From Planctomycetota bacterium (GTDB taxonomy: Bacteria > Planctomycetota > UBA1135 > GCA-002686595): 64,000 nt of DNA. Below the pieces are notes generated by a model. It made no database searches, was not told the DNA's origin, and worked only from the letters and a program-made list of their open reading frames with translations. Location: positions 2,529-66,528 of the forward strand of contig JBGAOR010000013.1 of NCBI GenBank assembly GCA_044221705.1, given 5' to 3'. The position numbers were made by a program, and so were the translations under genes. This document shows, one piece after another, positions 2,905 through 62,804 of the stretch; within the stretch, counting starts at the first letter, position 1; each line of letters opens with the position of its first letter.

Positions 2905-3516
2905 ATGCCGAACGAGTACTCGCCCTGGCGACCGCATCCCTGGCACGGGCTCGAAGCCGGTCCGGACGTGCCGCGGCGCGTCTTCGCGTTCGTCGAGATC
3001 ACGCCGTTCGACGGCGTGAAGTACGAGGTCGACAAGCGCACCGGCTACCTCAAGGTCGACCGCCCGCAGGGTTCCTCGTCGCTGCCGCCGATGCCGTACG
3101 GGTTCGTGCCGCGCACGTACTGCGGACGGCGCGTGGGCGAGCTCATGCCCGGGACACGCGGCGGCGACGGCGATCCGCTCGACGTGTGCGTCCTGACCGA
3201 GCGGCCGATCTCGCGCTCGGAGATCCTGCTCGAGGCGCGCGTGGTCGGCGGCATCCCGATGCGCGACGCGGGGCTCGCCGACGACAAGATCGTGGCCGTT
3301 CTGCACAGCGACGAGCTGTATGCGCGCGTGCAGGAGCTCGCCGACGTGCCCGAGGTCATCCTGCGGCGGCTCGTGCACTACTTGCGCTACTACAAGGCGC
3401 TCCCGGGGCGAGACAATCCGGTGGTGCTCGGCGATCCGTACGACCGTCGGCACGCCGAGCACGTGATCGAGGCCGCGCTGGCCGACTACCGCGAGGGGTT
3501 CCCCCGCGCGGATTGA
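2905..3516 (+). CDS. ppa: inorganic pyrophosphatase (family I)
   Basis: The translation [17 protein letters not shown] ... [10 protein letters not shown] ... DDKIVAV matches the soluble PPase signature. ATG 2905 is in frame within the long ORF 787..3516. Confidence 0.9.
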
Positions 3517-28653: not shown

Positions 28654-28654
28654 A

Positions 28655-31600
28655 ATGAGCGGCCCAACGGCCGCTTCGAGGACCCCCATGCTGTTCGCCG
28701 TACGCCCCCACCTCTTCCGCTACACCGGACCGGTCGCGGCGTGGCCGCGACCGGAAGCGCTGGACTCGGCGCTCCAGGCCTTCCGCGCCGAACACGGCGC
28801 GAGCTGGCAGGTCGCCCGCGACACCGAGACCGGCTTCGCCGAGATGCTCTACGGCGGCGGCGCGCAGCTCGGGGCCGCGGTGCGGACGGAGGCCGAAGCG
28901 CAGGTGCTCGCCGGGCTCGCGCTCGCCGCGACCGCGTCGGTGCACGGCGTCGCGACGGAAACGCTGCACGTCGAGCGCGTCGTGTTCCTGCCCCTGGGCA
29001 TGATCGGCACCTCGGACAAGTGGACCGTGCGCTACGGGCAGCGGCTCGGCGGCCTGGACGTCGAGGGCGCCAAGGTCAACGTGCTGCTCGACTCGACCGG
29101 TCGCATCCTGTCGGTGCACTCGACCGCGGTCGCGGGCGTCGAGACGATCCCGTCGCTGCCGACCTTCGGCCCCGAGAGCGCGCTGGCCGTCGCCGGCGAC
29201 GCCTTCCTCGCACGCCACGAGATCCAGGCGGCCGACGCCTCGCGCCCGGTGCTCACGGCGCGCCGCACGCTCGCCGACGGACGGCGCGTCGCGCGCGCGG
29301 CGTGGTCGATCGACCTGTCGCACGGACCCGCCAGCGAGACCCCGATCGCCGACCGCTACTGGATCGACGCGCTGAACGGCTCGGTCCTGGCGGTGGAGAA
29401 CCAGATCCACCACTTCGACGTCACGGGCACGGTGCGCACGAAGGCGACGCCGGGCCTCGCGCCCGACACCGCCAGCAACCCCGAGACGGACCAGATCATG
29501 CGCTACGCGCGCGTGACGAGCTCGGCCGGCGAAGTGACCACCGACGCCAGCGGCGTCTTCGTGTACCCGGGCGTGAACACGCCCCTGTCCGTCACGGTCA
29601 CCTACTACGGGACCTACAACGACGTCCAGAACGCGGCCGGCGCGGAGTACTCGCTCACGACGACGGTCCAGCCCAACACGCCGACCACGATCAACATGAA
29701 CCCGGCGCCGACGGACCAGCTGACGGCGCAGGCGAACGCGATGATCGGCGTCAACCGGCTGCGCGATTACGTGCGCTCGGTGAACCCGACGGACGCGACG
29801 TCCGACTTCCGCTACGTGGTGAACGTGAACCAGGCGAACACCTGCAATGCGTTCTTCAACGGCAACTCGATCAACTTCTTCCTCGCCGGCGGGGGCTGCC
29901 CGAACACCTGCTACTCGACCGTGATCAGCCACGAGGCCGGCCACTGGCTGAACGTCCTCTACGGCACGGGCAACGGCGGCGACGGGATGGGCGAAGGCAA
30001 CGCCGACGTGTTCGCCATGTACAACTACGACGATCCGGTCGTGGCCCAGGACTTCTTCGGCGTCGGCTCGCCGATCCGCACGGGCCTCAACAACCGGACC
30101 TTCTGCGGCGATACGACCCCGGCCTGCTACGGCGAGGTCCACTCCGACGGCGAGCCCTGGATGGGCGCCGCCTGGAAGATCCGCAACCGCCTGAACCAGA
30201 CGAACGGCAACGCGGTCGGCGATGCGATCTCGAACGCGATCTTCATGGGCTGGATGAACGGCTACAACCAGTCGCAGATCCGCTCGATCATCGAGACCCA
30301 GTGGCTCACGCTGGACGACGACGACGCGAACCTCACGAACGGCACGCCGCACTTCGGCGACATCGACGGCGGGTTCCGCGACCAGGGCTTCCCGGGCGTC
30401 ACGCTCGTCGCGCTGGCGATCGCCAACGTCACCGCGCTGCCCGACACCGAGAACGTGGCCGGACCGTACACGGTCGACGCTTCGATCTCGGCCAACTTCA
30501 GCCCGCCCCTGACCGGCACGATCCTGCGCTGGCGCGTGAACGGCGGCGCGTTCCAGGACGTGGCGATGGCGAGCCTGGGCGGCGGTTCCTACCGCGGCAC
30601 GATCCCGGGTCAGCCCTATCCGTCGCTCGTGCAGTACTACGTCGTGGCGACGGACAGCGCGGCCCGCGTGGCCACGTCGCCGCCGAGCGCGCCGGAGCAA
30701 CTCCACTCGTTCGACGTCGGCACGCGGAACTCGATCGCGAGCTACGGTTTCGAGACGACGGCCTCCGGCTGGACCACGGGCACGGTCGGCGACACGAGCA
30801 ACCCCGAGGTCGACTGGGCCCGCGGTCTCCCGCTCGGGCGCGGCGGCAACGTGGGCGGCACGCCCTGGCGCGATCCGAGCGCGGCATTCGCCGGGTTCTC
30901 GTGCTTCGCGAACGACCTCGGGTCCGGAGCGAACGACGGGGCGTACTCGGCCAACGTGCACAGCTGGCTGCGCTCGCCGGCGCTGAACCTCACCGGGCGC
31001 CAGAACGTGAGGCTGCGCTTCCAGAGCTGGCTCTCGTGCGACGGGAACGCCAACGACCAGGTGCGCGTGCTCGTGAACGGCACGACCTTCTACCTGAACC
31101 CGGCGGCGCCGCGGTCCGACACGGGCTGGGGCATGCAGGAGTTCGACATCTCCTCGGTCGCCGCGAACAACCCGTCGGTCCAGATCGAGTTCCAGCTGCG
31201 CTCGAACGGCACGAACCAGTTCGGCGGCTGGGCGATCGACGAAGTGAGCGTGTTCGACCTCTCGGTGATCGTGCCCCCGTGCCCGGCTCCGCAGAGCTAC
31301 TGCGTCGGCGCGCCGAACACGGTCGGAGGCGGAGCGCAGATGGGGTACTCGGGCACGGGCAACCTCGTGCTCAACAACCTGCAGCTCTTCGTCTACGCCT
31401 GCCCGCCGCACACGTCGGGTCTCTTCTTCTCCGGCACGACCGCCGTGCAGACCCCGTTCGGCAACGGATTCCGTTGCGTGGGCGGATCGACGGTCCGCCT
31501 GGGCATCCTGACCACCGACACGTTCGGCGACGCGACGCTCCCGCTCGACCTGAACAACCTGCCGGGCGGGGCCGCGCTCCCGGGTCAGGTGCGGAACTTC

Positions 31601-31681
31601 CAGTTCTGGTACCGCAATCCGGCCGCGGGCGGCGCGGGCTTCAACCTCAGCAACGGCCTGTCGGTCACGATCTGCAACTGA
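28655..31681 (+). CDS. thermolysin/fungalysin-like gluzincin metalloprotease with a jelly-roll domain and the conserved C-terminal domain
   Basis: HEAGH followed 19 aa later by EGNAD (HExxH ... ExxxD gluzincin arrangement), with a propeptide-like N-terminal region. MAM-like domain (GGWAIDEVSVFD). C-terminal tail 31292..31678. Start ATG 28655 lies just after the upstream stop; alternatives are 28625 and 28688. No obvious signal peptide. Confidence 0.8.
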   Translation: MSGPTAASRTPMLFAVRPHLFRYTGPVAAWPRPEALDSALQAFRAEHGASWQVARDTETGFAEMLYGGGAQLGAAVRTEAEAQVLAGLALAATASVHGVATETLHVERVVFLPLGMIGTSDKWTVRYGQRLGGLDVEGAKVNVLLDSTGRILSVHSTAVAGVETIPSLPTFGPESALAVAGDAFLARHEIQAADASRPVLTARRTLADGRRVARAAWSIDLSHGPASETPIADRYWIDALNGSVLAVENQIHHFDVTGTVRTKATPGLAPDTASNPETDQIMRYARVTSSAGEVTTDASGVFVYPGVNTPLSVTVTYYGTYNDVQNAAGAEYSLTTTVQPNTPTTINMNPAPTDQLTAQANAMIGVNRLRDYVRSVNPTDATSDFRYVVNVNQANTCNAFFNGNSINFFLAGGGCPNTCYSTVISHEAGHWLNVLYGTGNGGDGMGEGNADVFAMYNYDDPVVAQDFFGVGSPIRTGLNNRTFCGDTTPACYGEVHSDGEPWMGAAWKIRNRLNQTNGNAVGDAISNAIFMGWMNGYNQSQIRSIIETQWLTLDDDDANLTNGTPHFGDIDGGFRDQGFPGVTLVALAIANVTALPDTENVAGPYTVDASISANFSPPLTGTILRWRVNGGAFQDVAMASLGGGSYRGTIPGQPYPSLVQYYVVATDSAARVATSPPSAPEQLHSFDVGTRNSIASYGFETTASGWTTGTVGDTSNPEVDWARGLPLGRGGNVGGTPWRDPSAAFAGFSCFANDLGSGANDGAYSANVHSWLRSPALNLTGRQNVRLRFQSWLSCDGNANDQVRVLVNGTTFYLNPAAPRSDTGWGMQEFDISSVAANNPSVQIEFQLRSNGTNQFGGWAIDEVSVFDLSVIVPPCPAPQSYCVGAPNTVGGGAQMGYSGTGNLVLNNLQLFVYACPPHTSGLFFSGTTAVQTPFGNGFRCVGGSTVRLGILTTDTFGDATLPLDLNNLPGGAALPGQVRNFQFWYRNPAAGGAGFNLSNGLSVTICN

Positions 31682-50468: not shown

Positions 50469-50572
50469 GAAAGTCTCGATCGGTGACCAACGCGCAGGAT
50501 AGCTGGCGGGATCGCGCGGCTGCCACCGCGTTCGCGCTGGAATCGCGCGCCCGTGCACGTTCTGATCCGTGT

Positions 50573-52489
50573 GTGCGCGTCCTCATCGCCTCCGCGCCGC
50601 ATCGCGACACGTTCGGCTACTCGATGCCGCCGCCGGGCCTCCTGCGCCTGGGCGGCTGGCTCGAGCGCGAGGGCGTCGACGTCGCGCTCGTGGACCTGGC
50701 GCACGAGCTGGCCGCGGGGCGACTGCCCGAGGGCGACGGCCTGTGCGATGCCGCGGCGGACCTCCTCCTGCGAGGCGGACCGTTCGACGCGATCGGCCTG
50801 TCGGTGATGGGCGCGACGCTGCCCGCGGGGCTCGCGATCCTGGAGCGGATCCGCGCGCGCGATCGCGCGATTCCGCTCTGGATCGGCGGCCCGGGCACGA
50901 CCGGCGTCGACACCGCGCTCGTCGAGCGCGCGCACTGCGTCGACGTCGTCGTGCGCGGCGAGGGCGAGATCACGACGACGGAGCTCGCGCGCGCGCGCGG
51001 CCTGTCGCCGCACGGCATCGCGGGGCTCACGTGGCGCGACGCCGGCGGACGGGCCGTGCGCGAGCCGGACCGCGCGCCGATCGCCGACCTCGACGCGCTC
51101 GCGCCGTATGCGTGGCATCTCCTGCCGCCGATCGCGGCGTACAAGCGCATCACCGGCGCGGCCGACGGGCTCGTGCCGGTCGACTCGGGCCGCGGCTGCG
51201 TCTACGACTGCTCGTTCTGCACGATCGGGAGGTTCTGGTCGCGGCGCTCGCGCGTGCTGCCGGCGCGCAGGCTCGCGGACGAGGTCGAGGCGCTGCGCGC
51301 GATCGACGGCGCGCACGCGGCGTACCTGTGCCACGACCTCTTCGCGGCGAACCGCGCGCACGCCGTGCAGTTCTGCGCCGAGATGGTCGCGCGCGGGAAT
51401 CCCGTGCCGTGGGAAGTGCGCGCGCGCGCCGACCACCTGGACCGCGAGCTGCTCCAGCTCATGGGGCGCGCCGGCTGCTACCGCGTCCTGCTCGGCATCG
51501 AGTCGGCGGCCGAGAGCGTGCGCGAAGCGTGCGACAAGTCTCTGCGCCCCGGCACGGACCTCCTGACGGTCGTGCGCGACTGCGTCGAGGCGGGCGTGAC
51601 GCCGATCCTGTCGGTGATCCTGGGGCTGCCGGGCGAGGGGCCGGCCGAGCTCGAAGCGAGCCTCGACTTCTGCGCGCGCGCGGCGCTGCTCGGCGGCGTG
51701 AACGTGTCGCTGCACCTCGTGAACCCGCAGCCGGGTTGCACGCTGGGCGAGGAGCACGGCGCGAGCGCGCGCGCGGTGCCGGGGATCCCGCCCGACATGG
51801 CGCGCGGCGCGGGCGAGACGGCGGCGGAGCGCGCCTGGATCGACGCGCACCCCGATCTCTTCACGACGTTCGCGCTGCTCGCCGGCGACCCGGTGGGCCA
51901 AGGCGCGCTGTCCGAGATCGCGAGCGAGCTGCCCGAGGTCCTCCACCGGTATCCGCGCACGTTCGCACTGCTCGGCCGCGCGCTCGAAACGAGCGCGCAC
52001 GGCGGGTTCGCGGCCTGGAAGCGCCACGGCCGGAGCTTCGAGGCCTTCGCGCGCGTCCAGCGCGATCCGCTCGTCGACGACGTGCTGGCCGTCGAGCAGG
52101 CCGGCGTGCGCGCCGCCGCACTGGCCGTGCGCGCGCCGAGCGTCGGCCCGCGCGCGCGCGGCGTGCTCGTCGAGACACGCTGCGACGTGGCCGCCGTGTT
52201 CGAGGCCCTGCGCGGCGGCCGCGAGCTGCCCCGCGCCGAACCGCGCGCGTCCTGGATCTGCGCCGTGCCCGCGGACCCGTCGCGCGCGCTGGCCGGAATC
52301 CGCACACTGCGCGTGTCGGCCGACGTCGCGCGCCTCCTGCAGGCGCTGGACGGCGCGCGCCCGATCGACGAGCTCGAGGCCGCGCGCCCGGGCTTCGCGG
52401 GCGCGATCGCGAGCCTCGAACGCGCCGGCCTCGTGGAATCGGGAACAGGAACGGCCGCCGCGGAGCGGATGGAGACGACGACACCATGA
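50573..52489 (+). CDS. B12-binding-domain radical SAM protein (class B) with a PqqD/RRE-like C-terminal segment
   Basis: GTG 50573 (VRVLIASAPH); GC3 is poor upstream. Rossmann-like B12 domain (IGLSVMGATL ... VVVRGEGE). Canonical CVYDCSFC at 51197..51220. The last 70 aa or so (VSADVARLLQALDGARPIDELEA ... IASLERAGLVE) resemble a winged-helix RiPP recognition element. Confidence 0.85.
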   Translation: MRVLIASAPHRDTFGYSMPPPGLLRLGGWLEREGVDVALVDLAHELAAGRLPEGDGLCDAAADLLLRGGPFDAIGLSVMGATLPAGLAILERIRARDRAIPLWIGGPGTTGVDTALVERAHCVDVVVRGEGEITTTELARARGLSPHGIAGLTWRDAGGRAVREPDRAPIADLDALAPYAWHLLPPIAAYKRITGAADGLVPVDSGRGCVYDCSFCTIGRFWSRRSRVLPARRLADEVEALRAIDGAHAAYLCHDLFAANRAHAVQFCAEMVARGNPVPWEVRARADHLDRELLQLMGRAGCYRVLLGIESAAESVREACDKSLRPGTDLLTVVRDCVEAGVTPILSVILGLPGEGPAELEASLDFCARAALLGGVNVSLHLVNPQPGCTLGEEHGASARAVPGIPPDMARGAGETAAERAWIDAHPDLFTTFALLAGDPVGQGALSEIASELPEVLHRYPRTFALLGRALETSAHGGFAAWKRHGRSFEAFARVQRDPLVDDVLAVEQAGVRAAALAVRAPSVGPRARGVLVETRCDVAAVFEALRGGRELPRAEPRASWICAVPADPSRALAGIRTLRVSADVARLLQALDGARPIDELEAARPGFAGAIASLERAGLVESGTGTAAAERMETTTP

Positions 52490-54738
52490 TCCAACGTCAG
52501 GACTTCCCCGTGAGCCTCGTGTTCCCGCCGCAGGGGCACTTCACGCAGCCCTACCTGGCTCTGCCCTGCATCAAGGGCTGGCTGCGCGCCCACGGGTTCG
52601 ACGACGTCGAGCTGCTCGACGCGAACATCGAGGCCTACGACGCGTTCCTGTCGGGCGACTACGTCGCGCGCTGCGCCGAGCGCGTCGCGACGCGCCTTCC
52701 GCTCGAGCGCTTCGCCGCGCGCGAGTCGCTGGGCTTCCGCGACCTGGCCGCGTTCCGCGCCGCGTCCGAGTGCGCGGCCAGCGGCGCCGCCGTCGCGGCG
52801 CGCATCGACGAAGCCAAGTCGGTGATGCGCGGCGGCGCGTTCTTCGACGCCGAGCGCTACGTGCCTGCCGTGCGCACGATCTACCACGCGCTGCGCATCG
52901 TCTCGGCCGCGCACTTCCCGAGCGAATTGACGCCGCACAACTTCACGATGCGGTACGGCAACGACCGCTCGGCCGAGGTGCTCCTGGCGACGCTCGACGA
53001 GGACGAGAACCCGTTCCTCGCCTTCTACCGCGAGCGCGTGCTTCCGCGGCTCGTCGCGCGCCGTCCGCGCGTGCTGGGCCTCTCGATCATCTACGGCTCG
53101 CAGCTCGTGCCGGCGCTGACGCTGGCGCGGCTCGTGAAGGCCGCGCTGCCCGACTGCCACGTCACGGCCGGCGGCGGGTTCCTGGCCTACATCGGCCGGA
53201 AGCTGATGAACGCGCCGGGCATGGACGCGTGCCTCGACAGCCTGATCTTCCACGAGGGCGAGGCGCCGATGCTCGCCCTGTGCGAGGCGCTGCGCGACGG
53301 ACGCGCGCTCGGGACGATCGGTTCGCTCTCGTGGTTCGACCGCACGGGTGGCGCCGCGCGCCTCGTCGAGAACGAGCGCGGGCACCCGATCCGGCTCGAC
53401 GACGCGCCCGCCCCGGACTTCGACGGCCTGCCGTTCGGGCTGTACCTCAGCCCCGAGATCGTCGTCCCCTACGACGTGAACCGCGGGTGCTACTACGGCG
53501 AGTGCACGTTCTGCACGCTGCCGACCGTCATCGGCCCGGGCTACCGCACGCGCAGCGCGAAGACCATCGTCGACCACGTGCTGCAACTGCGCGATCGACT
53601 CGGGACGAGCCACGTGAACTTCATCACGGACTGCATGCCGCCCGGGCTGCTGCGCGACCTGCCCGAGGAGCTCATCGCGCGCCGCGCCGGCATCCACTGG
53701 TGGGCCGACGCGCGCGTCGAGCCCAAGGCCTACACGAAGGAAGGCTGCGAGCGGCTGGTCGAGTCCGGCTGCCGCAAGCTGCTCTTCGGCTTCGAGACGG
53801 CCACGCCACGCCTCCTGAAGCTGATGAAGAAAGGGCAGAGCCTGAAGTCCGTCGTGGACGTCGCGCGCAACTGCTCGGACGCCGGGATCAGCGTCACGTT
53901 CTTCGCGATGGTCGGGTTCCCGAGCGAGACGCAGGCCGAAGCGCAGGCGACCGTCGACTTCCTGGTCGAACACGCCGACATCGTGCGCGAGGTCTCGCTG
54001 CAGACGTTCCACATCGACGAGGAGAACCACGTCTACCGCAACCCGTCGGAGTTCGCGGTGCGCATCCGCTCCGACCCGACGGCCGACCTGCAGCTCTACC
54101 ACGACTACGAGGCCGAGGTCGGGATGACGCAGGGCGAGGCGGCCGAGATGTTCGAGCGGATGATGGCCGCGCTGCGCGCGCGCTATCCGCTCTTCTCCGG
54201 CGACAACATCTTCTGGTTCATGCAGAAGAGCCACTACTTCCTGCACCTGGCGCGCGGGACGAGCCCGGACGAGTTCGTCGCACGCTGTCGCCGCCGCGCG
54301 GAACGGCGCGCCGACGAGTCGCCGGATCCGACGCTGGCGGTCGGCGCGGACTGCGCGAGCGTCGCGATCCCCTTCTCGTGGGCCGAGGCGGTCGCGGGCC
54401 TCGGCACTCCCGCCGCGCGGGCAGCGCGGCCGGAGTTCCTGACCGGCCGCTACGTGGCCGACGCCGAGGAGCAGGCCGCCGCGGGCCTCGCGCCGCTCTG
54501 GCCGGCGGCGCGCGCGCTCGTCTACTGCGGCGAGACGGCCGAATTCGCCGAGGTGCGGACGGACGGCGCGCGCGCGCTGGCCGCGCTGCGTACGGCGGGC
54601 AACCTCGGCGCGCTCAGCTCGGCGCTCTCCGCGCCCGCGCGCTCGAACCTGGAACGCTTCGCGGGCGAGCTCGCGAAGCGCGGTATCCTCGTGCGCCGCG
54701 AGGAACCCTCCCGCACCACCGTCCGAGGTCCGCGATGA
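52486..54738 (+). CDS. B12-binding-domain radical SAM protein with a CX4CX2C cluster motif and an RRE-like C-terminal segment
   Basis: ATGA overlap with the upstream rSAM stop. N-terminal B12-like domain (LVFPPQGHFTQPYLALPCIKGWL ... LIFHEGEAP). CYYGECTFC at 53488..53514. TIM-barrel core (LLFGFETATPRLLKLMKKG). The tail EVRTDGARALAALRTAGNLGALSSAL ... FAGELAKRGILV is RRE-like. Confidence 0.85.
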   Translation: MIQRQDFPVSLVFPPQGHFTQPYLALPCIKGWLRAHGFDDVELLDANIEAYDAFLSGDYVARCAERVATRLPLERFAARESLGFRDLAAFRAASECAASGAAVAARIDEAKSVMRGGAFFDAERYVPAVRTIYHALRIVSAAHFPSELTPHNFTMRYGNDRSAEVLLATLDEDENPFLAFYRERVLPRLVARRPRVLGLSIIYGSQLVPALTLARLVKAALPDCHVTAGGGFLAYIGRKLMNAPGMDACLDSLIFHEGEAPMLALCEALRDGRALGTIGSLSWFDRTGGAARLVENERGHPIRLDDAPAPDFDGLPFGLYLSPEIVVPYDVNRGCYYGECTFCTLPTVIGPGYRTRSAKTIVDHVLQLRDRLGTSHVNFITDCMPPGLLRDLPEELIARRAGIHWWADARVEPKAYTKEGCERLVESGCRKLLFGFETATPRLLKLMKKGQSLKSVVDVARNCSDAGISVTFFAMVGFPSETQAEAQATVDFLVEHADIVREVSLQTFHIDEENHVYRNPSEFAVRIRSDPTADLQLYHDYEAEVGMTQGEAAEMFERMMAALRARYPLFSGDNIFWFMQKSHYFLHLARGTSPDEFVARCRRRAERRADESPDPTLAVGADCASVAIPFSWAEAVAGLGTPAARAARPEFLTGRYVADAEEQAAAGLAPLWPAARALVYCGETAEFAEVRTDGARALAALRTAGNLGALSSALSAPARSNLERFAGELAKRGILVRREEPSRTTVRGPR

Positions 54739-54926
54739 AGACGCCCGAGAAGAAGAACGACGCCGACCCCGCGCAGAACCCGGCCCGCATCCCCGGCCCG
54801 AAGAAGCGCGAAGAGCGCGGCGCCGAACCGGCCGTGCCGGAGATCGACTTCGCCAAGCTCGACCTGCGGGTGGAGGTCGTGGACGAGCGCATCAGTCCGG
54901 GCGAGACGAACGTGTTCGACAAGTGA
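54735..54926 (+). CDS. 63-aa peptide, candidate radical-SAM-modified precursor
   Basis: ATGA overlap with the rSAM stop. 61 of 64 codons, stop included, end in G or C (exceptions are gaa, gaa, agt). Translation: MKTPEKKNDADPAQNPARIPGPKKREERGAEPAVPEIDFAKLDLRVEVVDERISPGETNVFDK. Two hairpins follow the stop. Confidence 0.6.
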   Translation: MKTPEKKNDADPAQNPARIPGPKKREERGAEPAVPEIDFAKLDLRVEVVDERISPGETNVFDK

Positions 54927-54960
54927 GCCGCAGCCTTGGGCTGCGAACCACGCGTGACGC

Positions 54961-54992
54961 GCGCGTGAGTCCGGGCTGACGACTCACCGCGC
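54961..54992 (+). terminator. GC-rich stem-loop downstream of the rSAM-peptide operon
   Basis: GCGCGTGAGTC ... GACTCAC(C)GCGC, about 11 bp with one bulge. It is preceded by a smaller hairpin, CGCAGC-cttgg-GCTGCG, at 54929..54945. No U tract, which is common in high-GC genomes. Confidence 0.3.
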
Positions 54993-55246
54993 GTCGCTCC
55001 TCGGCCCCGGCGCGCGCCGCCTGCTCACCCCGTCGTCGGCGCCCGCCGGAACGAGCCCAGCCCGGGCCCCCGCCGCCCGGCTCGCCGTCGCCCGCTCCAA
55101 GCCTCCCGGCCCGCCCCTGCCGACTTCCGTAAGGGACCAGTAAGCTGGAACCAGTCCCACCGCGTCGCGGCGACCCGGACCTGGATCGCCTCGGCGCCCC
55201 ACTGGCTCCTTCTCCCTCGGCATCGACCCGGTGCCGGCTCTCTCCC

Positions 55247-57121
55247 ATGAAGCACGCCTGGATTCCGCTCTCGCTCCTCGCCCTCGCCTCCAGCGCTTTC
55301 GCCGAAGGCACGAAGTACGCGCACAAACCCGCGCCCGCAGGAGTCCCCGCCGCGACGCCGCAGCCGGTGACTTCCTTCATCAACGGTTCGGATTCGTGCA
55401 CGACCCCGGACGTCATCGCGGGCCTCGGACCCCACGGGTTCGACAACTCGGCCGCGACGACGGGAGCGGAGGGCCAGACCGACCCGCTGTGCCTGGCGTT
55501 CGGCTCCACCGCGATCGACCAGGACGTGTGGTTCTCGTGGACGGCGCCCTCGAGCGGGACGGCGTTCCTCGACATCTGCTCGAGCGGCAGCACGGTCGAC
55601 ACGAAGGTCGCCGTGTACTCCGGCTCCGGATGTCCGAGCGGACCCGCGATCGGCTGCAACGACGACGCGTGCCCGGGGCTGCAGAGCAACGTGACCTTCC
55701 CCTGCGTGGCGGGCAACCCCTACACGATCCAGGTCGGCACGTACCCGGGCGCGGGCGGCGGCGTCGGTTCCTTCACGTTCACGATCAGCGCGGGCCCGGG
55801 CAACGATTCGTGCACGACCCCCCAACCGATCGCCGGCCCCGGCCCGCACGCGTACGACACGACGTTCGCGACGACGGGCACGCAGGGACAGGCCAACTCG
55901 CGCTGCTTCATCTTCAACACGTCCGCGATCCAGTCCGACGTCTGGTACACGTGGACCGCCGCCGCGAGCGGATGGGTCGCCGTGGACACCTGCACGGGCG
56001 GACAGCACGACCTGCGCGTGGCCGTGTACGCCGGCGCGGGCTGCCCGGTCGGTGAACCGATCATCTGCGACGACGACGCCTGCGGCACGATCGGCGCCTC
56101 GTCGCGCGCTCCGTTCCTGGCCACCGCCGGCCAGTCGTACACGATCCAGGTCGGCAGCTACCCGGGTCAGGCCGGCGCGCCGGGGTTCTTCACCCTGTCG
56201 CCGTTCACCCCCGCCGCGGGCGATTCGTGCAGCGCGCCGATCGACATCGCGGGCGCGGGGCCCTTCAACTGGGACAACTTCGACGGCGTGACCGGACAGG
56301 AAGGCCAGAACGAGGCTCTGTGCTCCAACGAGATGATCACGCACGACCTGTGGTATCGCTGGACGTCGTACTGCACGTCGAACGTGACCGTCACGCTGTG
56401 CGCGCTCTCGAGCCTCGACACGAAGGTCGCGGTGTACTCCGGCAGCGGCTGCCCGGCGAGTTCGGCCCTGGCTTGCAACGACGACGCCTGCGCGGCCGGC
56501 GGACCTTCCTCGGTCACCTTCGCGGCCGTCGACGGCCAGACCTACATGATCCAGCTCGGCTGCTGGCCGGGCGAGACGCCCGGTGCGGGCGCGTTCACGA
56601 TCACGACGAGCTGCCCGCCGCCGACCGGGACCGTCTACTGCATCGGCGACGGCCAGTCGCCGCACACCGCGTGTCCGTGCGGCAACAACAGCCCGACGGC
56701 GGCCGGCGTGGGCTGCCTCAACTCGCTGGGCAGCGGCGGACGGCTGCGCGCATTCGGGAACCCGAGCCTCACCGACGACAACGACGGCTCGGCCTCGGTC
56801 ACGCTGATCGGCAACAGCATGCCCAACAGCTCGTGCCTCTACTTCCAGGGCACGGCGATGCAGAACGCGGGCAACGGATCGGTGTTCGGCGACGGCCTGC
56901 GCTGCGCCGCCGGCTCGATCCTGCGCCTCGACACGGAGTCGAACGTCGCGGGCACGTCGCAGTACCCGAACCCGTCGCAGCCGCTGCCGCTCTCGGTCCG
57001 CGGGAACGTGCTGTCCCCGGGAACGCGCACGTACCAGGCCTGGTACCGCAACGCAGCGGCGTTCTGCACGGCCTCGACGTTCAACCTGTCGAACGGCGTC
57101 GAGATCGTCTGGGCGCTCTAG
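55247..57121 (+). CDS. secreted protein: three tandem Cys-rich domains of about 135 aa plus the conserved C-terminal domain
   Basis: Signal peptide (IPLSLLALASSAFA). Three repeats, each with DSC..P..IAG.GP, DVW(F/Y).WT, DTKVAVYSGSGCP, C(N/D)DDAC and YTIQVG.YPG. C-terminal module 56632..57118 contains ACPCGNN and WYRNAAAFC..STFNLSNG. Confidence 0.75.
   Translation: MKHAWIPLSLLALASSAFAEGTKYAHKPAPAGVPAATPQPVTSFINGSDSCTTPDVIAGLGPHGFDNSAATTGAEGQTDPLCLAFGSTAIDQDVWFSWTAPSSGTAFLDICSSGSTVDTKVAVYSGSGCPSGPAIGCNDDACPGLQSNVTFPCVAGNPYTIQVGTYPGAGGGVGSFTFTISAGPGNDSCTTPQPIAGPGPHAYDTTFATTGTQGQANSRCFIFNTSAIQSDVWYTWTAAASGWVAVDTCTGGQHDLRVAVYAGAGCPVGEPIICDDDACGTIGASSRAPFLATAGQSYTIQVGSYPGQAGAPGFFTLSPFTPAAGDSCSAPIDIAGAGPFNWDNFDGVTGQEGQNEALCSNEMITHDLWYRWTSYCTSNVTVTLCALSSLDTKVAVYSGSGCPASSALACNDDACAAGGPSSVTFAAVDGQTYMIQLGCWPGETPGAGAFTITTSCPPPTGTVYCIGDGQSPHTACPCGNNSPTAAGVGCLNSLGSGGRLRAFGNPSLTDDNDGSASVTLIGNSMPNSSCLYFQGTAMQNAGNGSVFGDGLRCAAGSILRLDTESNVAGTSQYPNPSQPLPLSVRGNVLSPGTRTYQAWYRNAAAFCTASTFNLSNGVEIVWAL
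55382..56630 (+). repeat. three in-frame tandem repeats of about 405 nt (protein-domain repeats)
   Basis: Repeat units start near 55382, 55799 and 56219. Conserved Cys positions and motifs recur at the same spacing in all three. Confidence 0.6.
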
Positions 57122-57270
57122 GACGCGCGCGTCCGGCGCGTCACGAGCGCGCCGGCCTCATGCCGCGGGCCGCGGAGCTCTCGGGCTCCGCGGCCCGCGC
57201 TGCATCGCGCGCAGCGCCGGTCGCGGGGTTCCATTCCGCGGCGCGAGCGCGATACTCGATCGCGCTCGAC

Positions 57271-57702
57271 ATGGACACCTCCGACTGGAAGCACGCGCGC
57301 GGCCGCTACGAGGACCGCCCGATCGTGGCGCGCTACCGCGAGTTCGCGCCCGACTTCCCGCGCGCGGGCTACCCCGAGCGCCTGAACGTCTTCTGGCGCA
57401 TGGGCGAGCCCACGGAGTCCGGCCTCGGTTCAGAAGCGGAATCCGCGCGCATCGCGACGTTCGAGTCGCGGCTCGCCTCCGCCGTGGAGACCGATCGACA
57501 CACCGTGTTCTCGCTGATCCTGACCTGGAACGGACGCGCGGAGTTCGTGCTGCACACCGCCGACGTCGACGGGTTCCTGGCGCGGCTCGGCGCGATGCCG
57601 CACGAGGAGGAGAACTACCCGATCGAGATCCAGGTCGAGCCGGACCCGGAGTGGGCGTACGACCGCTCGGTGCGGCCGCCGGGTCCGTCATCGCCGCACT
57701 GA
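57271..57702 (+). CDS. DUF695-like protein
   Basis: 143-aa ORF from ATG 57271 (MDTSDWKHARGRYEDRPIVARY ... FSLILTWNGRAEFVLHTAD), reminiscent of DUF695. The upstream in-frame extension is Ala/Arg-rich and unlikely to be coding. Confidence 0.6.
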   Translation: MDTSDWKHARGRYEDRPIVARYREFAPDFPRAGYPERLNVFWRMGEPTESGLGSEAESARIATFESRLASAVETDRHTVFSLILTWNGRAEFVLHTADVDGFLARLGAMPHEEENYPIEIQVEPDPEWAYDRSVRPPGPSSPH

Positions 57703-57781
57703 GGCTGCGGCGGGGTGCTAGCGGGCGCAGCGCCGATCCGTTCCGCCGCGTCGGCTACGATCGCGCGCAGAGCCGGCCCAC

Positions 57782-58198
57782 ATGACGAGCGAACCCGAGA
57801 CGACCGACACCATCTACGCATCGATCTCGTACGACGACGCGCACGCGGCCATCGAGTGGCTCGAGCGCGCGTTCGGTTTCAGGCGTCGTCTCGTCGTGCC
57901 GGGCCCGGACGGCACGGTCGCGCACTCCGAGCTGAGCTACGGCTCGGGCGTCGTCATGGTCTCGTCCTCGAAGCCGGACAAGGGCCGCGTGAGCCCACGG
58001 CGGCTCGGCGCGGTGGCGCACGCCCTGTGCGTCCGCGTCGACGACCCCGACGCGCTCTACCGCCGCGCGAAGGCGGCCGGCGCCGAGGTCACCGAGGAGT
58101 TGCGCGACGAGGACTACGGCTCGCGCGGCTTCATGGTGCGCGACCTCGAAGGCCATCCCTGGTACTTCGGGACGTACCGGCCGGGCGCGCATTGGTGA
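57782..58198 (+). CDS. VOC family protein (glyoxalase / bleomycin-resistance fold)
   Basis: YDDAHAAIEWLERAFGF ... AHSELSYGSGVVMV ... DYGSRGFMVRDLEGHPWYFGTY is a typical small VOC protein. Confidence 0.85.
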   Translation: MTSEPETTDTIYASISYDDAHAAIEWLERAFGFRRRLVVPGPDGTVAHSELSYGSGVVMVSSSKPDKGRVSPRRLGAVAHALCVRVDDPDALYRRAKAAGAEVTEELRDEDYGSRGFMVRDLEGHPWYFGTYRPGAHW

Positions 58199-58389
58199 TC
58201 GTTCACGGCGCCCGCTCGCGCCGGATCTGCCGCGGCCCTTCCCGGAGCGGAGGCGCGCACCCTGGGCGAGCGGTTCCGCGCGATCCGGACGGCCGCGGCT
58301 GCATCGCCGGTGCCCGGAGCCTGGAGCACTGGAATTGCACTGTAGATTGGAGTGAGCCACCTGCGGCTCTTCCCGAAGTCGATTCCACC

Positions 58390-59577
58390 ATGCGCATCTC
58401 CACACTCCTGACCGCCCTGTCCGTCTGCTTCCTGGCCGGCCCGTCGATCGCCGGCCGGCTGATCGCGGTCGACAGCTCGCGCGCGCTGTACGACGTCGAC
58501 ATCGCGACCGGCGCCAAAACGCAGATCGGGACGGTGTCGGCCGGCGCGGGCTCGCCCAGCGGCCTGGCGCGCAATCCCATCACGGGCACGATCTACCTGT
58601 GCTCCTCCACCGTCGATTCGTTGTTCACCCTCGACATCACCACCGGTTCCGCCGTGGTGGTCGGTCCCCTGGGCTCCACGACGATCGTCATGCAGGGGCT
58701 CGAGTGGGACAGCACGCAGGGCGCGTTGTGGGGCGCGTCCAACGGGAACCTCTTCCAGATCGGCCCGATGAGCGGCGCGGCGACGCAGATCGGAACGTCG
58801 GGACTCACGTCGTTCACGAACCTGGGCTACGTGCCCTCGACGGACTCGCTGTACGCCACGAACGTCGGCACCGACCGTCTGTACAACGTCAACCGCGGCA
58901 CGGGCGCGATGACCATGATCGGTCCGCTCGGGTCGACGGCAGCGAACGCGAGCGGGCTCGCCTACGACACCGACAACGACGTCATGTACCTGATCGACGG
59001 GACGTCGGACACGCTCTACACGGTCAACCTCACGACCGGCGCTGCGACGATCGTCGGCTCGACGGGCACGGGCAACCTGCAGGGGCTCGTCTACATCCCG
59101 GGGAACGCGCCGGTCACGCCGTTCTGCTTCGGCGACGGCACCGGCGTCGCCTGCCCGTGCGGCAACAACGGCGCCCCCGGGAATGGCTGCCGCAATTCCG
59201 TGGCGGTCGGCGGCGCGAACCTGTTCGCCTCCGGCAACGCGAGCATCGCCAACGACACGTTCCTGCTGCAGGGCCAGGACATGCCCAACAGCTCCGCCCT
59301 GTACTTCCAGGGCACGGCGCAGCAGGCGGGCGGCGGTCAGGCGTTCGGCGACGGGCTGCGCTGCGCGGCGGGCACGATCGTCCGCCTGGGCATCGAGCAG
59401 AACAACCTGGGCACGAGCCAGTACCCGACGTTCCCCGAGCTCTCCATCTCGGTGCGCGGACTGTGCACCGTCGGCGCGACGCGGACGTACCAGGTGTGGT
59501 ACCGCAACGCGGCAGCGTTCTGCACGTCGAGCACGTTCAACCTCTCGAACGGCCTGCAGGTGACCTGGCTGCCCTGA
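58390..59577 (+). CDS. secreted repeat (propeller-like) protein with the conserved C-terminal domain
   Basis: Signal peptide (LLTALSVCFLAGPSIAG). About five repeats of the pattern LY.V(D/N)..TGA.T.IG..G. C-terminal module 59119..59574 with ACPCGNN, YFQGTAQQ, FGDGLRCAAG, WYRNAAAFCTSSTFNLSNG. Confidence 0.75.
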   Translation: MRISTLLTALSVCFLAGPSIAGRLIAVDSSRALYDVDIATGAKTQIGTVSAGAGSPSGLARNPITGTIYLCSSTVDSLFTLDITTGSAVVVGPLGSTTIVMQGLEWDSTQGALWGASNGNLFQIGPMSGAATQIGTSGLTSFTNLGYVPSTDSLYATNVGTDRLYNVNRGTGAMTMIGPLGSTAANASGLAYDTDNDVMYLIDGTSDTLYTVNLTTGAATIVGSTGTGNLQGLVYIPGNAPVTPFCFGDGTGVACPCGNNGAPGNGCRNSVAVGGANLFASGNASIANDTFLLQGQDMPNSSALYFQGTAQQAGGGQAFGDGLRCAAGTIVRLGIEQNNLGTSQYPTFPELSISVRGLCTVGATRTYQVWYRNAAAFCTSSTFNLSNGLQVTWLP

Positions 59578-59597
59578 CGCGCGCACGCGGAACGCAG

Positions 59598-59629
59598 GCG
59601 GGCCGCGCGGCAGGTGCCGGGCGGCCCGC
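59598..59629. terminator. stem-loop between convergent genes
   Basis: GCGGGCCGC (59598..59606) pairs with GCGGCCCGC (59621..59629) around a 14-nt loop. Confidence 0.4.
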
Positions 59630-59667
59630 GTCGTCGCGTACCGAAATCCCGACGACTCCGCGGCGGA

Positions 59668-60243
59668 TCAGAACTGGTAGCGCACGCCGAAGAAGAGCGT
59701 GTCGGAGAAGTCGCTGATGGTCTCGTAGTTGACGCCGCCGCTCAGGCGATCGTCGAAGTAGTAGCGCGCGCCGAGGCCGAGCCCGACCTCCGTGTCCTCG
59801 AAGTCGACGAACTCGAGCAGGCCGTTCAGCTCGATCTGCTCGTTCGCCATGTAGCGCACGCCGCCCTCGAGCGCCCAACCGGTGTCGTCCGCACTGCCGA
59901 CGTCGGCACGCGCGATCGAGAACAGTCCGTAGGCGTCGAGCCCCTTCTGGAGCGGGACGGCCCATCCCGCGCCGATCTTGAACAGGGACAGGTCGGCATC
60001 GCCGCCCGAGTCCTGGTACGACGCCTTCACGAAGAGGTCGCGCCACGCGCGGTAGGAGCCGACGAGCTGGAACCCGAGTTCGGAGTCGGCGCCGGGCACG
60101 TCGACATCGACCAGCCCGACGTCGAACTCGCCGTAGGTGTAGTTGAAGTTGGCCTGACCGGGCTCGGCACCCGTGGCGGAATCGGCGTGGCCCTGCCACC
60201 CGAGCGACGGGGCGAGGGAGAGCGTGAGGAGCGGCAACAGCAT
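59668..60243 (-). CDS. small outer-membrane beta-barrel protein
   Basis: Signal peptide MLLPLLTLSLAPSLGWQGHA. Alternating hydrophobic beta-strand pattern and a terminal aromatic signature (FFGVRYQF). ATG 60243 preferred over TTG 60264. Confidence 0.7.
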   Translation of the reverse strand: MLLPLLTLSLAPSLGWQGHADSATGAEPGQANFNYTYGEFDVGLVDVDVPGADSELGFQLVGSYRAWRDLFVKASYQDSGGDADLSLFKIGAGWAVPLQKGLDAYGLFSIARADVGSADDTGWALEGGVRYMANEQIELNGLLEFVDFEDTEVGLGLGARYYFDDRLSGGVNYETISDFSDTLFFGVRYQF

Positions 60244-60351
60244 GTCTCGAATCCTTGGTTTCAATCCGTCAGGACGCCGACGGCTCGGGGGGGGCCGGCG
60301 CAGGATAGGGCAGTCCGGCAGCCGCGTCGCCTGGCCCGCGCCAGGTCCGAG

Positions 60352-60864
60352 TCAGATCCGGTGCATGAACCGGAACACGCGCTCGTGCATCACGCGCACG
60401 ACGTAGTCGTCCTGGCCGCCGAGGCACTCCATGCAGCGCTTCAGCTCGCCGAACTTCGAGCCCGGCGGCAGCTCGACGGTCAGCACCATGTGGAAGTAGC
60501 CCTCGATCATCTTCTGCGAGATGTCGTGCACGCTGCCGCCGGCCTGCGCGAGCGCGCCGGTGATCTCGGCCAGCACGCCCGGACGGTTCCGCCCCACCGC
60601 GGTGATCACGACGCTCGTCGCCGGATCGTCGTCGCTGGGCTCGGGCAGGTTCGGCAGCGAGCGCCGCGCGCGTTCGGCGTCGGGGCCGCGGTCGGGCGCG
60701 GGCTCGGCGTACGTTCCGCCAGTGCCGGTCACGATCCGCACGCCGAGCTCCTCCGCGACGGAGAGCGCGTGCGGCGTCGCCAGCGTCTCGCCGTCCACGA
60801 CGATCTGCCCGCCGGCCGGAGCCAGGCGGCGCACGTCGTCGGCGGTCAGGTAGCGGCGGGCCAC
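60352..60864 (-). CDS. ACT-domain (UPF0237-like) protein with an N-terminal extension, last gene of the BMC shell operon
   Basis: The C-terminal 90 aa (VVITAVGRNRPGVLAEITGALAQAGGSVHDISQKMIEGYFHMVLTVEL) resemble single-ACT UPF0237 proteins. The N-terminal 45 aa or so (YLTADDVRRLAPAGGQIVVDGETLATPHALSVAEELGVRIV) are of unknown function. GTG start lies 13 nt after the BMC-T stop. Confidence 0.7.
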   Translation of the reverse strand: MARRYLTADDVRRLAPAGGQIVVDGETLATPHALSVAEELGVRIVTGTGGTYAEPAPDRGPDAERARRSLPNLPEPSDDDPATSVVITAVGRNRPGVLAEITGALAQAGGSVHDISQKMIEGYFHMVLTVELPPGSKFGELKRCMECLGGQDDYVVRVMHERVFRFMHRI

Positions 60865-60877
60865 GGCGGTGTCGCGA

Positions 60878-61474
60878 TCAGAGGTGGCGCACGAGCTCGG
60901 GGTGCGGGCGCGGGATCACGACCTCGCGTGCGAGCAGGCCGCGCTCCTGGGCCGCGCGCGCACCGGCCGCGACCGAGCTGCGCACGTCGCTGACCTCGCC
61001 GGTCAGCGTGAAGAAGCTCTTCCCGCCCAGGCCGTTCGCGATGCGCACGTCGATCAGGTCGACCGTCGCCGTCTTCAGCGCGACGTCCGCGCTGGAGATC
61101 GTGGCCGCCACCGTCGTCGTCTCGATCACGCCGATCGCGTCGAGCGTGCCGTTGATGCGTCCACCCTTGCGCTTCAGCATCGGCACGACCTGCTCGTGGA
61201 TCTGCGGGATCACGAGCTGGTCGACCAGGTCGGATCCGGCGAGGGCCGCGCCGCGCGCCGCGCTGGCGCGCACGTCGGCGACGGCGCCCGTGAAGAGCAT
61301 CACGTACTTGCCCGGCTGCACCGGCGTCGAGAAGAGCAGCTCGACGCGCGCTTCCTTGAGCACGGCGTCGGCCACCTCGACGCCCTTGGCGACGCTGGCC
61401 AGCTCCAGCACTCCGATCGCCACGTCGAGCTCGGCGTCGTCGCGGACTTCGGGATTGTGGTCGTTGCGGTTCAT
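60878..61474 (-). CDS. BMC-T shell protein (tandem BMC domains), similar to Haliangium BMC-T1
   Basis: Two BMC domains (AIGVLELASVAKGVEVADAVLKEA ... and AIGVIETTTVAATISSADVALKTA ... GKSFFTLTGEVSDVRSSV). ATGA overlap with the upstream BMC-P gene. Confidence 0.88.
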   Translation of the reverse strand: MNRNDHNPEVRDDAELDVAIGVLELASVAKGVEVADAVLKEARVELLFSTPVQPGKYVMLFTGAVADVRASAARGAALAGSDLVDQLVIPQIHEQVVPMLKRKGGRINGTLDAIGVIETTTVAATISSADVALKTATVDLIDVRIANGLGGKSFFTLTGEVSDVRSSVAAGARAAQERGLLAREVVIPRPHPELVRHL

Positions 61475-61806
61475 GACGTTCCCCTGCTGCCCTTCCCGGG
61501 CCGGTCGTGCTCGCGCGTCGGACCGACGATGCGGCCTTCCTCGAGCTCCATCGTGTCGATGATCGCGGCGATCGCCGTCTGGAATCCGATGTCGTGGCTG
61601 CGGCCGATCGCGTGGCGCGCGGCGCGGCCGAAGACGACGAGCACGCGCTCGCCGATCCCGGCGCCCAGCGGATCCACGGCCACGAGCGTCTCCGCGGATT
61701 CGCGGCCGTCCGTCGTGAACGGGCGCACGACGAGGAAGCGCAGGCCGACGAGGCTCGGGTCCTTCTTCGTGGCCCACACGTTGCCGACGACGGTGCCGAC
61801 GAGCAT
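61471..61806 (-). CDS. BMC-P pentameric vertex protein (EutN/CcmL family)
   Basis: MLVGTVVGNVWATKKDPSLVGLRFLVV ... AVDPLGAGIGERVLVVFG is a canonical EutN/CcmL sequence. Confidence 0.88.
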   Translation of the reverse strand: MLVGTVVGNVWATKKDPSLVGLRFLVVRPFTTDGRESAETLVAVDPLGAGIGERVLVVFGRAARHAIGRSHDIGFQTAIAAIIDTMELEEGRIVGPTREHDRPGKGSRGTS

Positions 61807-62163
61807 CTAGAGGCCTCCCCCGAGCGGCTTGCGCTCGGCGGCGAGCCGCGCCGGATCCCTCATGCGCCAGGATGCGGGCGCGTCGGGCACGTCGAAGTCG
61901 TCGACGATGCCGACGATCGCGGCCTCGAAGGCGAAGTCGCCGTCCAGGCCGAGCTGCGCGACGCGCGCGGCCTTGCCGAACGCGACGACGACGTGCTCGC
62001 CGATCGCGGCGCCCAACGGATCGGCGGCCACGACCGGCGTGACCTTGGGCGCGCCCGGCTCGCGGCGCTCGTCGAGCGCTTCGACCACGAGCAGCCGCAG
62101 CCCGGCCAGGTCCTGGACCTTCTTCGTCGCCCACACCTCGCCCACGACGCGCCCGAGGAACAT
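61807..62163 (-). CDS. BMC-P pentameric vertex protein (EutN/CcmL family), second copy
   Basis: MFLGRVVGEVWATKKVQDLAGLRLLVV ... AADPLGAAIGEHVVVAFG. The start shares one base with the upstream stop (TGATG), and the stop abuts the next start. Confidence 0.85.
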   Translation of the reverse strand: MFLGRVVGEVWATKKVQDLAGLRLLVVEALDERREPGAPKVTPVVAADPLGAAIGEHVVVAFGKAARVAQLGLDGDFAFEAAIVGIVDDFDVPDAPASWRMRDPARLAAERKPLGGGL

Positions 62164-62804
62164 CAGATGCTCCCCGCGTTCGCGCGGCCGCGCAGGCCCT
62201 CGAGCGCGCGCCGCACGGCCTTGACCGCCTCGTCGATCTCCGCGTCCGTCCCGGCGAGGCGCAGCCGTCCGACCGCGCCCTCGGCGCCGAGTCCGACGAT
62301 GCGGATCGGCGAGGCCTTCTCGGCCTCGTTCGCCGCGAGCGTCACGTACACCGCCGGGTTCACCTCGAGCGTGTAGAGCGTGTCGTCGCCCAGGACGAGC
62401 ATCCCCGCGCGCGTCCGGTTGATCATCATCGCGTGGTGGTCGCTGATCTTGCGGATGATCTCGCTCGTCAGGAGGTTCGGCTTGAGCGCGTCCTCGAACG
62501 TGACGCCCGCCGCCTTCAGGATCAGCTCGCCGGCCTGGCGCACCATGCCCTGGTCGGGGCCGTGCACCTCGAGCGTGCCGTAGCTGCGCTCGGTCACGAG
62601 CGCCCCGGGCTTCACGTCGCAGCTCTTCAGCGCGACGTCCATCAGGCGGTTGATCACGATGCCCGGCTGGACCTCGAGCCAGAACGCGGCTTCGCCCGTG
62701 ACGGGGAAGAACCCGTCCGAGTTCGTGGCCACGGTCGCGGCGAACTGCGGTTGCATCTGGTCGATGAACACCGCGCCGCGCAGCTCGATTCCGGAGTGCG
62801 TCAT
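62163..62804 (-). CDS. BMC-T shell protein (CsoS1D-like permuted tandem BMC), similar to Haliangium BMC-T2/T3
   Basis: VFIDQMQPQFAATVA, AFWLEVQPGIVINRLMDVALK, YGTLEVHGPDQG, LAANEAEKA and GRLRLAGTDAEIDEAV match my recollection of the double-stacking trimer family. Confidence 0.85.
   Translation of the reverse strand: MTHSGIELRGAVFIDQMQPQFAATVATNSDGFFPVTGEAAFWLEVQPGIVINRLMDVALKSCDVKPGALVTERSYGTLEVHGPDQGMVRQAGELILKAAGVTFEDALKPNLLTSEIIRKISDHHAMMINRTRAGMLVLGDDTLYTLEVNPAVYVTLAANEAEKASPIRIVGLGAEGAVGRLRLAGTDAEIDEAVKAVRRALEGLRGRANAGSI

Follow-up and report, generated by a model that had tools for sequence, protein, structure and literature searches.

In a 64,000-nucleotide stretch of contig JBGAOR010000013.1 from a Planctomycetota bacterium (this whole stretch, with a GC content of 72.4%, is called the window here) four genes within 33 kb encode proteins that end in one kind of C-terminal domain, the tail, carried on four mutually unrelated passengers. 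This tail is a new family and fold among C-terminal localisation modules, previously unannotated, and it is probably a new surface-localisation module. The proteins are designated B1 (55247..57121), B2 (58390..59577), A2 (28625..31681) and A1 (the protein ending at 28653). An earlier note on this DNA had counted four proteins with the module on four passenger architectures, and this is borne out by Pfam and NCBIfam searches of the passengers together with BLASTP and hhalign comparisons of the tails. Genes and tails are listed below (ORF, open reading frame; GC3, GC content at third codon positions; HMM, hidden Markov model).

55247..57121, plus strand: gene B1, ORF of 624 aa, GC3 0.92
56633..57118, plus strand: B1 tail (162 aa, subtype B), matched by the tail HMM at E 1.4e-64 up to one residue before the stop
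58390..59577, plus strand: gene B2, ORF of 395 aa, strong GC3 signal
59119..59574, plus strand: B2 tail (152 aa, subtype B), matched by the tail HMM at E 3.5e-75 up to the last residue
31274..31678, plus strand: A2 tail, subtype A, tail HMM E 7.5e-38, E 2e-16 against the B2 tail
28207..28650, plus strand: A1 tail, divergent subtype, aligned end to end with the family profile by hhalign (probability 92.8%, E 3.9e-7)

In the window the tail HMM detects B2, B1 and A2, three copies in all, A1 being more remote. B1 opens with a Sec-type signal peptide (MKHAWIPLSLLALASSAFA), continues with three PPC/GBD_T9SS_assoc-like repeats and a short proline-rich linker, and closes with the tail, whose domain proper begins at YCIGDG; the Pfam models PF23759 and PF04151 match its passenger only. 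In B2 a signal peptide (MRISTLLTALSVCFLAGPSIAG) is followed by a DUF4394/DUF6923 beta-propeller and the tail, and an identical 395-aa protein (P0340) is present in NCBI assembly GCA_044229935.1. The passenger of A2 has an FTP propeptide and matches choice-of-anchor J only weakly, below threshold, and that of A1 is a choice-of-anchor B protein (TIGR04312, E 2.9e-88). The B2 tail was the query for structure models and searches. A weak tblastn match of this query at window positions 120..200 is due to chance and sits inside an ORF resembling aromatic amino acid hydroxylases.

A large family of C-terminal tails

Full-length BLASTP of B1 against B2 returns one significant alignment (B1 464-622, B2 245-393, 58% identity, E 1e-47) and no similarity in the rest of the two proteins; the tails alone are also 58% identical (E 8e-54). 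The almost residue-for-residue match proposed for these tails was thus recovered, and the alignment contains every motif listed for it, i.e. (Y/F)CxGDG, ACPCGNN, GCxNS, MPNSSxLYFQGTA, FGDGLRCAAG, GTSQYP, SVRG and TRTYQxWYRNAAAFCTxSTFNLSNG. Of the limits given for the tails, 59119..59574 was correct and the start at 56632 lay one base out of frame, the in-frame tail being 56633..57118. Nucleotide identity between the two tails is 69% over 465 nt and 76% (69/91) over the last 91 nt. This likeness is real, but it does not indicate the recent paralogy that had been read into it, since it follows from strong constraint on the protein (58% amino acid identity) and from codon bias (72% GC, GC3 above 0.9), and since orthologous tails are closer to each other than paralogous ones. 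The orthologs are found at locus L003 of another Planctomycetota metagenome-assembled genome (MAG), which is syntenic with window positions 54183..59552 at about 76% nucleotide identity and has both genes. The whole B1 protein is 74% identical in amino acids to its ortholog there, and the parts compare as follows.

B2 tail against its ortholog: 66% identity
B1 tail against its ortholog: about 72% identity (an estimate, N-masked residues excluded)
B1 tail against B2 tail (paralogues): 58% identity
B1 passenger against its ortholog: 75% identity
B2 passenger against its ortholog: 60% identity

A recent duplication or concerted evolution of the B1 and B2 tails is ruled out by this order, and with both genes present in L003 the duplication must be old; there is no sign of gene conversion. 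In L003 a run of N at about 2953..3057, an assembly artefact, masks the end of the tail of the B1 ortholog.

The family reaches far beyond these genes. With the B2 tail as query, a word-indexed search found 716 proteins at E<=1e-3. A functional name is missing from all 120 of those listed ("hypothetical protein" or unnamed), and among these 120 Pfam matches fall on the passengers only. An exhaustive profile search of 1.84 billion representatives at 50% identity yielded 9,795 proteins at E<=1e-3, of which 6,832 remain at E<=1e-10 and 2,245 at the stricter E<=1e-30. Scanning a sample with one genome per GTDB species gave at least 569 pattern matches, at least 544 of them confirmed, and the best 80 (79 distinct loci) are spread over 12 MAGs, all of them from uncultured Planctomycetota and each with 2-11 loci, several of these MAGs being from lakes as judged by isolate names. 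Together with the window the 79 loci hold 141 tails, and two or more tail genes lie within about 12 kb in 38 of these 80 sequences. On the 245-kb contig JAPLOF010000015.1 of a Lake Pavin MAG at least four tail loci (L013, L015, L028, L073) occupy about 52 kb (166-218 kb). As the window likewise has four tail genes in 33 kb, these genes tend to form islands.

B tails match the A2 tail by BLASTP at E 1e-13 to 1e-16, and the A1 tail matches the A2 tail at E 3e-5 and is a distant member. The link to subtype A made in the earlier note is borne out, and A1 follows end to end by hhalign. The family divides into subtype B, with six cysteines, and subtype A (55 relatives), which lacks the CPCGN motif, and there are further divergent subtypes represented by the A1 tail and by protein P0430. 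The proposal of a lineage-expanded C-terminal family with at least two subtypes accordingly holds, given 9,795 clusters, the concentration of the family in uncultured Planctomycetota MAGs, many copies per genome and the strictly C-terminal position; the suspicion that the similarity might be restricted to two recent paralogues is answered by the same number of clusters.

None of the tails of the four window proteins matches Pfam-A or NCBIfam at E<=0.1, and no model of these libraries covers the tail in 100 diverse representatives, because the commonest Pfam family matches only nine members, and these on their passengers. A profile search of PDB sequences returned only a T-cell-receptor chain at E 0.15. 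From a 150-sequence alignment spanning both subtypes AlphaFold2 predicts the B2 tail confidently (predicted local distance difference test, pLDDT, 95.3; predicted template modelling score, pTM, 0.90) as an all-beta sandwich of about ten strands and one short helix. Foldseek comparison of this model with the PDB gave only generic sandwiches resembling Ig, FN3 and lytic polysaccharide monooxygenase (LPMO) domains (E>=0.049, query TM-score<=0.41), and an earlier, mediocre model from 23 sequences (pLDDT 76) found only generic Ig-like matches. Neither Pfam nor NCBIfam, nor the searches of PDB sequences and of folds, thus identified the module as a known lectin or carbohydrate-binding module (CBM), and we found no paper describing the domain.

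Typical conserved positions are given in B2-tail numbering. In subtype B the cysteines C3, C12, C14, C24, C82 and C135, in the contexts CxGDG, CPC, GCxNS, RC and FCT, are all invariant in 100 of 100 representatives, and the complete pattern occurs in 116 of 117 rows, the exception probably being an alignment artefact. Subtype A retains only C24 ("YC..PNS", equivalent to "GC.NS") and C82 ("RC"); it is devoid of C3, C12 and C135 and shows "AAGGAG" in place of the "FCT" loop, and in many of its tails a linker cysteine ("PPC") is accompanied by a terminal "FCP". Invariance of the cysteines therefore applies to all six within subtype B and to the pair C24/C82 only across subtypes, and the CPCGNN knot described before exists in subtype B as an N-terminal extension specific to it and is not the core of the family. 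The cysteines of CPCGN and FCT co-occur. Since one pair is universal, others are gained or lost in sets and the proteins are exported, the pattern is the signature of disulfide staples, and the tail cysteines fit this role; the CPCGN extension probably ties to the sandwich through C135 of "FCT". Besides the cysteines, F76, G77, G79, R89 and R129 are invariant across subtypes, C82 being so as well, and C24, R81, Q125, W127, Y128, F140, N141 and L142 are nearly so. Tail paralogues on unrelated passengers are 55-67% identical; this high conservation together with the invariant polar and aromatic residues fits one shared partner.

Terminal position and exchange of anchors

The tail ends 0-2 residues from the C-terminus in 143 of 144 representatives, the sole exception having an arginine-rich extension typical of a frameshift, and none of the 144 has tandem copies. 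Of the 141 tails in the genomic loci and the window, 138 reach to within 0-2 codons of the stop. Apparent frameshifts fuse the tail to downstream sequence in L064 (1772..7285) and in P0242. Among members starting with methionine 99 of 120 have an N-terminal hydrophobic, Sec-like signal, compared with 9 of 136 internal control segments. The passengers of 100 representatives comprise 46 Pfam families, including FG-GAP, DUF5122 and Kelch propellers, GBD_T9SS_assoc, DUF4394, TSP3, C-type and legume lectins, M23 peptidase and multicopper oxidase (Cu-oxidase); NCBIfam adds HAF repeat, delta-60, choice-of-anchor C and Q and MtsC-like domains.

What stands at this position in relatives of the B2 passenger was read from the C-termini of the 120 best matches to residues 1-243 alone. 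These propeller homologues are 47-100% identical to the query (about 47-58% in forms with alternative anchors) and the homologous propeller ends ...GSTGTGNLLGLAY(I/V), after which different C-terminal modules follow in different genomes:

the tail: 23 of 120
PEP-CTERM-like ending (PxPEP, hydrophobic stretch, RRR): about 50 of 120 by eye, 24 with a precomputed PF07589 match
type I dockerin (PF00404): three (P0358, P0372, P0432)
CxANCDGST repeat: five (P0371, P0376, P0379, P0413, P0438), P0438 being named "GC-type dockerin domain-anchored protein" at NCBI
other dockerin-like repeats: P0382, P0392, P0426
distant tail variants: P0430 (hhalign probability 96.5%, E 7e-10), P0448, P0454
two further unannotated cysteine-containing types: several

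The tail alternates with PEP-CTERM and dockerins in a "choice-of-anchor" pattern and therefore occupies an anchor or sorting slot. A motif scan of about 818 kb of tail-rich MAG sequence, a sample biased to tail genes, found no PEP-CTERM or GC-dockerin endings.

The two further cysteine-containing modules comprise about 100 aa each and follow the patterns "...PFCTCTVGHEW...GIQGADxxGxGGC...TDTMVVTIG" (P0378, P0384, P0390, P0405, P0425, P0427, P0442, P0444-P0446, P0452, P0457) and "...GPCxGTTLGLGxxNxxLVNT...PCxTSNVxxxP" (P0393, P0397, P0411, P0416, P0447); they may be additional modules of the anchor slot. Many propeller homologues of about 250 aa stop abruptly in "GPIPVELxGFxxE".

Stand-alone proteins exist as well, in which a linker connects nothing but a signal or transmembrane segment to the tail. 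One of them, a conserved 191-aa protein (P0306 cluster, 16 members), is made up solely of a hydrophobic N-terminal segment joined by a linker to a subtype-A-like tail, and its gene was located in Planctomycetota MAGs at:

L080, 8001..8576
L081, 8001..8576
L082, 1042..1617

On all three contigs the gene sits in a ribosomal-protein operon region between rpsG (S7) and a Ribo_biogen_C gene with fusA, and one of these contigs is from a MAG that also carries subtype-B tails. The gene of a diverged tail-only homologue (P0304, L085) also adjoins Ribo_biogen_C. Such tail-only proteins fit a domain that itself binds a partner better than a disposable export tag.

Possible roles of the tail

We favour, at somewhat less than an even chance, a cell-surface localisation module that docks its passenger non-covalently to one common envelope receptor. 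In such a mechanism the tail is a Sec-exported beta-sandwich of about 130-150 residues in which the pair C24/C82 is universal and the subtype-B CxGDG...CPCGN extension is probably pinned to the sandwich via the "FCT" cysteine. Once exported, a passenger such as a propeller, a set of PPC repeats, a peptidase or a lectin would be held at the cell surface by a tail that is retained rather than cleaved, and the tail would dock on a common envelope receptor, either a glycan or polymer similar to lipopolysaccharide or a scaffold protein; its role may be likened to that of dockerin or SLH domains. Some points weigh against this. Clustering of the ORFs of the 79 loci gave no conserved non-tail gene near the tail genes, nor did a receptor, scaffold or processing enzyme emerge; strict C-terminal placement on many cargoes suits a cleaved export signal equally well; and C3, C12, C14 and C135 could in principle form a Cys4 metal site. 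Recurrent non-tail clusters considered as partners were rejected as antisense artefacts of the tail or as unrelated genes, the latter coding, on reading their sequences, for a Ser/Thr kinase-WD40 protein, a TPR membrane protein, a sigma factor-like and a NadA-like protein.

A bolder proposal, possible but rather doubtful, is that the tail is the cargo tag of an undescribed Planctomycetota-specific sorting or surface-attachment system with the tail-only protein between rpsG and fusA as a core component. If true, this would be a sorting system with thousands of cargo proteins and its own machinery or receptor, with a scope like that of the C-terminal domain (CTD) of the type IX secretion system (T9SS) or of PEP-CTERM/exosortase.

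It is unlikely that the tail is an export or sorting signal modelled on these two systems, with which a dedicated envelope machinery would recognise the tail and move the cargo across or onto the outer membrane, the tail then being removed or covalently attached. Such a signal would suit a module that is strictly C-terminal and single-copy, occurs many times per genome on varied Sec-exported cargo, shares the broad fold class of T9SS CTDs, swaps with PEP-CTERM on homologous passengers and has GBD_T9SS_assoc and choice-of-anchor domains among its passengers. Against it, no HMM for T9SS, PEP-CTERM or other sorting signals matches the tail, the fold search gives no match among solved structures, and no machinery gene recurs beside the tail genes of the 79 loci. 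T9SS CTDs comprise about 70-100 aa, and the tail with its 130-160 aa is longer and also more conserved (55-67% among paralogues). The conserved tail-only proteins would moreover be a signal without cargo, and to our knowledge no T9SS is known from Planctomycetota, which we count against this explanation.

Slightly less probable still is an adhesion module of the CBM or lectin kind, with which the tail would bind polysaccharide of algae or particles or another external substrate, the shared target lying outside the cell. The beta-sandwich, the invariant residues Arg, Trp, Gln and Asn, such as occur in sugar-binding sites, and the existence of stand-alone tail proteins are consistent with it, and so are weak fold neighbours among carbohydrate-active proteins (LPMO, laminarinase, beta-GRP), all at E above 0.04. 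But the tail has no sequence or fold match to a known CBM or lectin, and unlike CBMs, which are found N-terminally, internally and in tandem, it never takes any of these positions. Its passengers are mostly propellers, adhesin repeats and peptidases, with no glycoside-hydrolase family among the 25 commonest passenger families listed, and on homologous passengers the same slot is filled by bona fide anchors. Self-association, by which tails would bind each other or an abundant tail-only protein and so build a heterogeneous surface layer or lattice, is very improbable: the position of a tail-only gene in a ribosomal-protein operon, where it is likely highly expressed, and the very high conservation across paralogues agree with it, but the idea is purely inferential and the fold search gave no significant S-layer-like match (8cka at E 0.13).

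Little is understood of how Planctomycetota present their very large extracellular proteomes and keep hold of them, and the freshwater clades in question are uncultured. About 10,000 clusters at 50% identity have neither a Pfam or NCBIfam model nor a structural neighbour. As the tail belongs to a large unannotated family and replaces PEP-CTERM and dockerins on homologous passengers, it offers a sequence handle for the prediction of surface proteomes and a way into the search for the receptor or machinery that goes with it, and its HMM would annotate thousands of "hypothetical" proteins at once.

Window surroundings and comparison with known systems

The genes around B1 and B2 are unrelated to the tail and comprise two B12-radical-SAM genes, DUF695, glyoxalase, an outer-membrane beta-barrel, an ACT protein and bacterial microcompartment (BMC) shell proteins. 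The features examined more closely are:

50483..52486, plus strand: B12-binding radical SAM gene
about 52480..54738, plus strand: second, tandem B12-binding radical SAM gene
54735..54926, plus strand: 63-aa ORF, GC3 0.95
59584..60350: 767-bp segment that includes the next gene
59668..60264, minus strand: small outer-membrane beta-barrel gene (PF13505, ending ...GVRYQF)
60352..62804, minus strand: ACT-domain gene, then BMC shell genes
60878..62134, minus strand: tandem BMC domain protein, E 6.8e-39
62163..62804, minus strand: weaker BMC match, below the Pfam gathering score

The stop of the second radical SAM gene overlaps (ATGA) the start of the 63-aa ORF, which is kept in L003 (64% identity), its C-terminal half being almost the same there (PE(I/L)DFAKLDL.VEVV(D/E)ERISPGETNVFDK); it is a possible precursor of a ribosomally synthesised and post-translationally modified peptide (RiPP) or a possible partner peptide. 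The 767-bp segment is absent from JBGASC010000079.1 of GCA_044229935.1 (L083), where the flanks are 99.5% (upstream) and 94.7% (downstream) identical, and this difference looks like a strain-level indel; the beta-barrel gene is 84-85% identical at the nucleotide level in L038.

Among known systems the tail resembles T9SS CTDs, PEP-CTERM and dockerins in role and belongs to none of them by sequence, motif or fold. The T9SS CTD (Por_Secre_tail, PF18962/TIGR04183) is likewise a folded beta-sandwich, confined to the C-terminal end of numerous and varied Sec-exported proteins in each genome, and its passengers overlap with those of the tail, e.g. in GBD_T9SS_assoc and choice-of-anchor domains. In contrast, the tail is about twice its size, stapled by cysteines, much more conserved and found in Planctomycetota; it has no match to the models PF18962, TIGR04183 and TIGR04131 (four window proteins at E<=0.1; 100 representatives), and no T9SS CTD is among the 50 Foldseek matches listed (best E 0.049, TM-score 0.41). 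The PEP-CTERM/exosortase signal (PF07589, TIGR02595) takes the exact position of the tail on DUF4394 propeller homologues, but it is a motif of about 25 residues with PEP, a transmembrane helix and a basic cluster, whereas the tail is a soluble domain of about 150 residues. The tails show none of these features: they end in ...FNLSNGxxVxWxP and have no transmembrane helix and no PF07589 match.

Dockerins (type I, PF00404, and GC-type) are also C-terminal on unrelated extracellular passengers and alternate with the tail on DUF4394 propellers, and a similar role of the tail, i.e. non-covalent attachment to a common partner, may be supposed. They are duplicated calcium-binding helical modules of about 60-70 residues with cohesin partners, whereas the tail is all-beta and, in the four window proteins, unmatched by dockerin HMMs. 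With CBM- and lectin-like sandwiches the tail has in common the general architecture and conserved aromatic and polar residues; it differs from them in having no Pfam CBM or lectin match, a best PDB TM-score of 0.41 and no internal, N-terminal or tandem occurrence. B1 and B2 themselves display what defines subtype B, namely a profile match at the stop, six cysteines and the motifs FGDGLRC, WYRN and FNLSNG.

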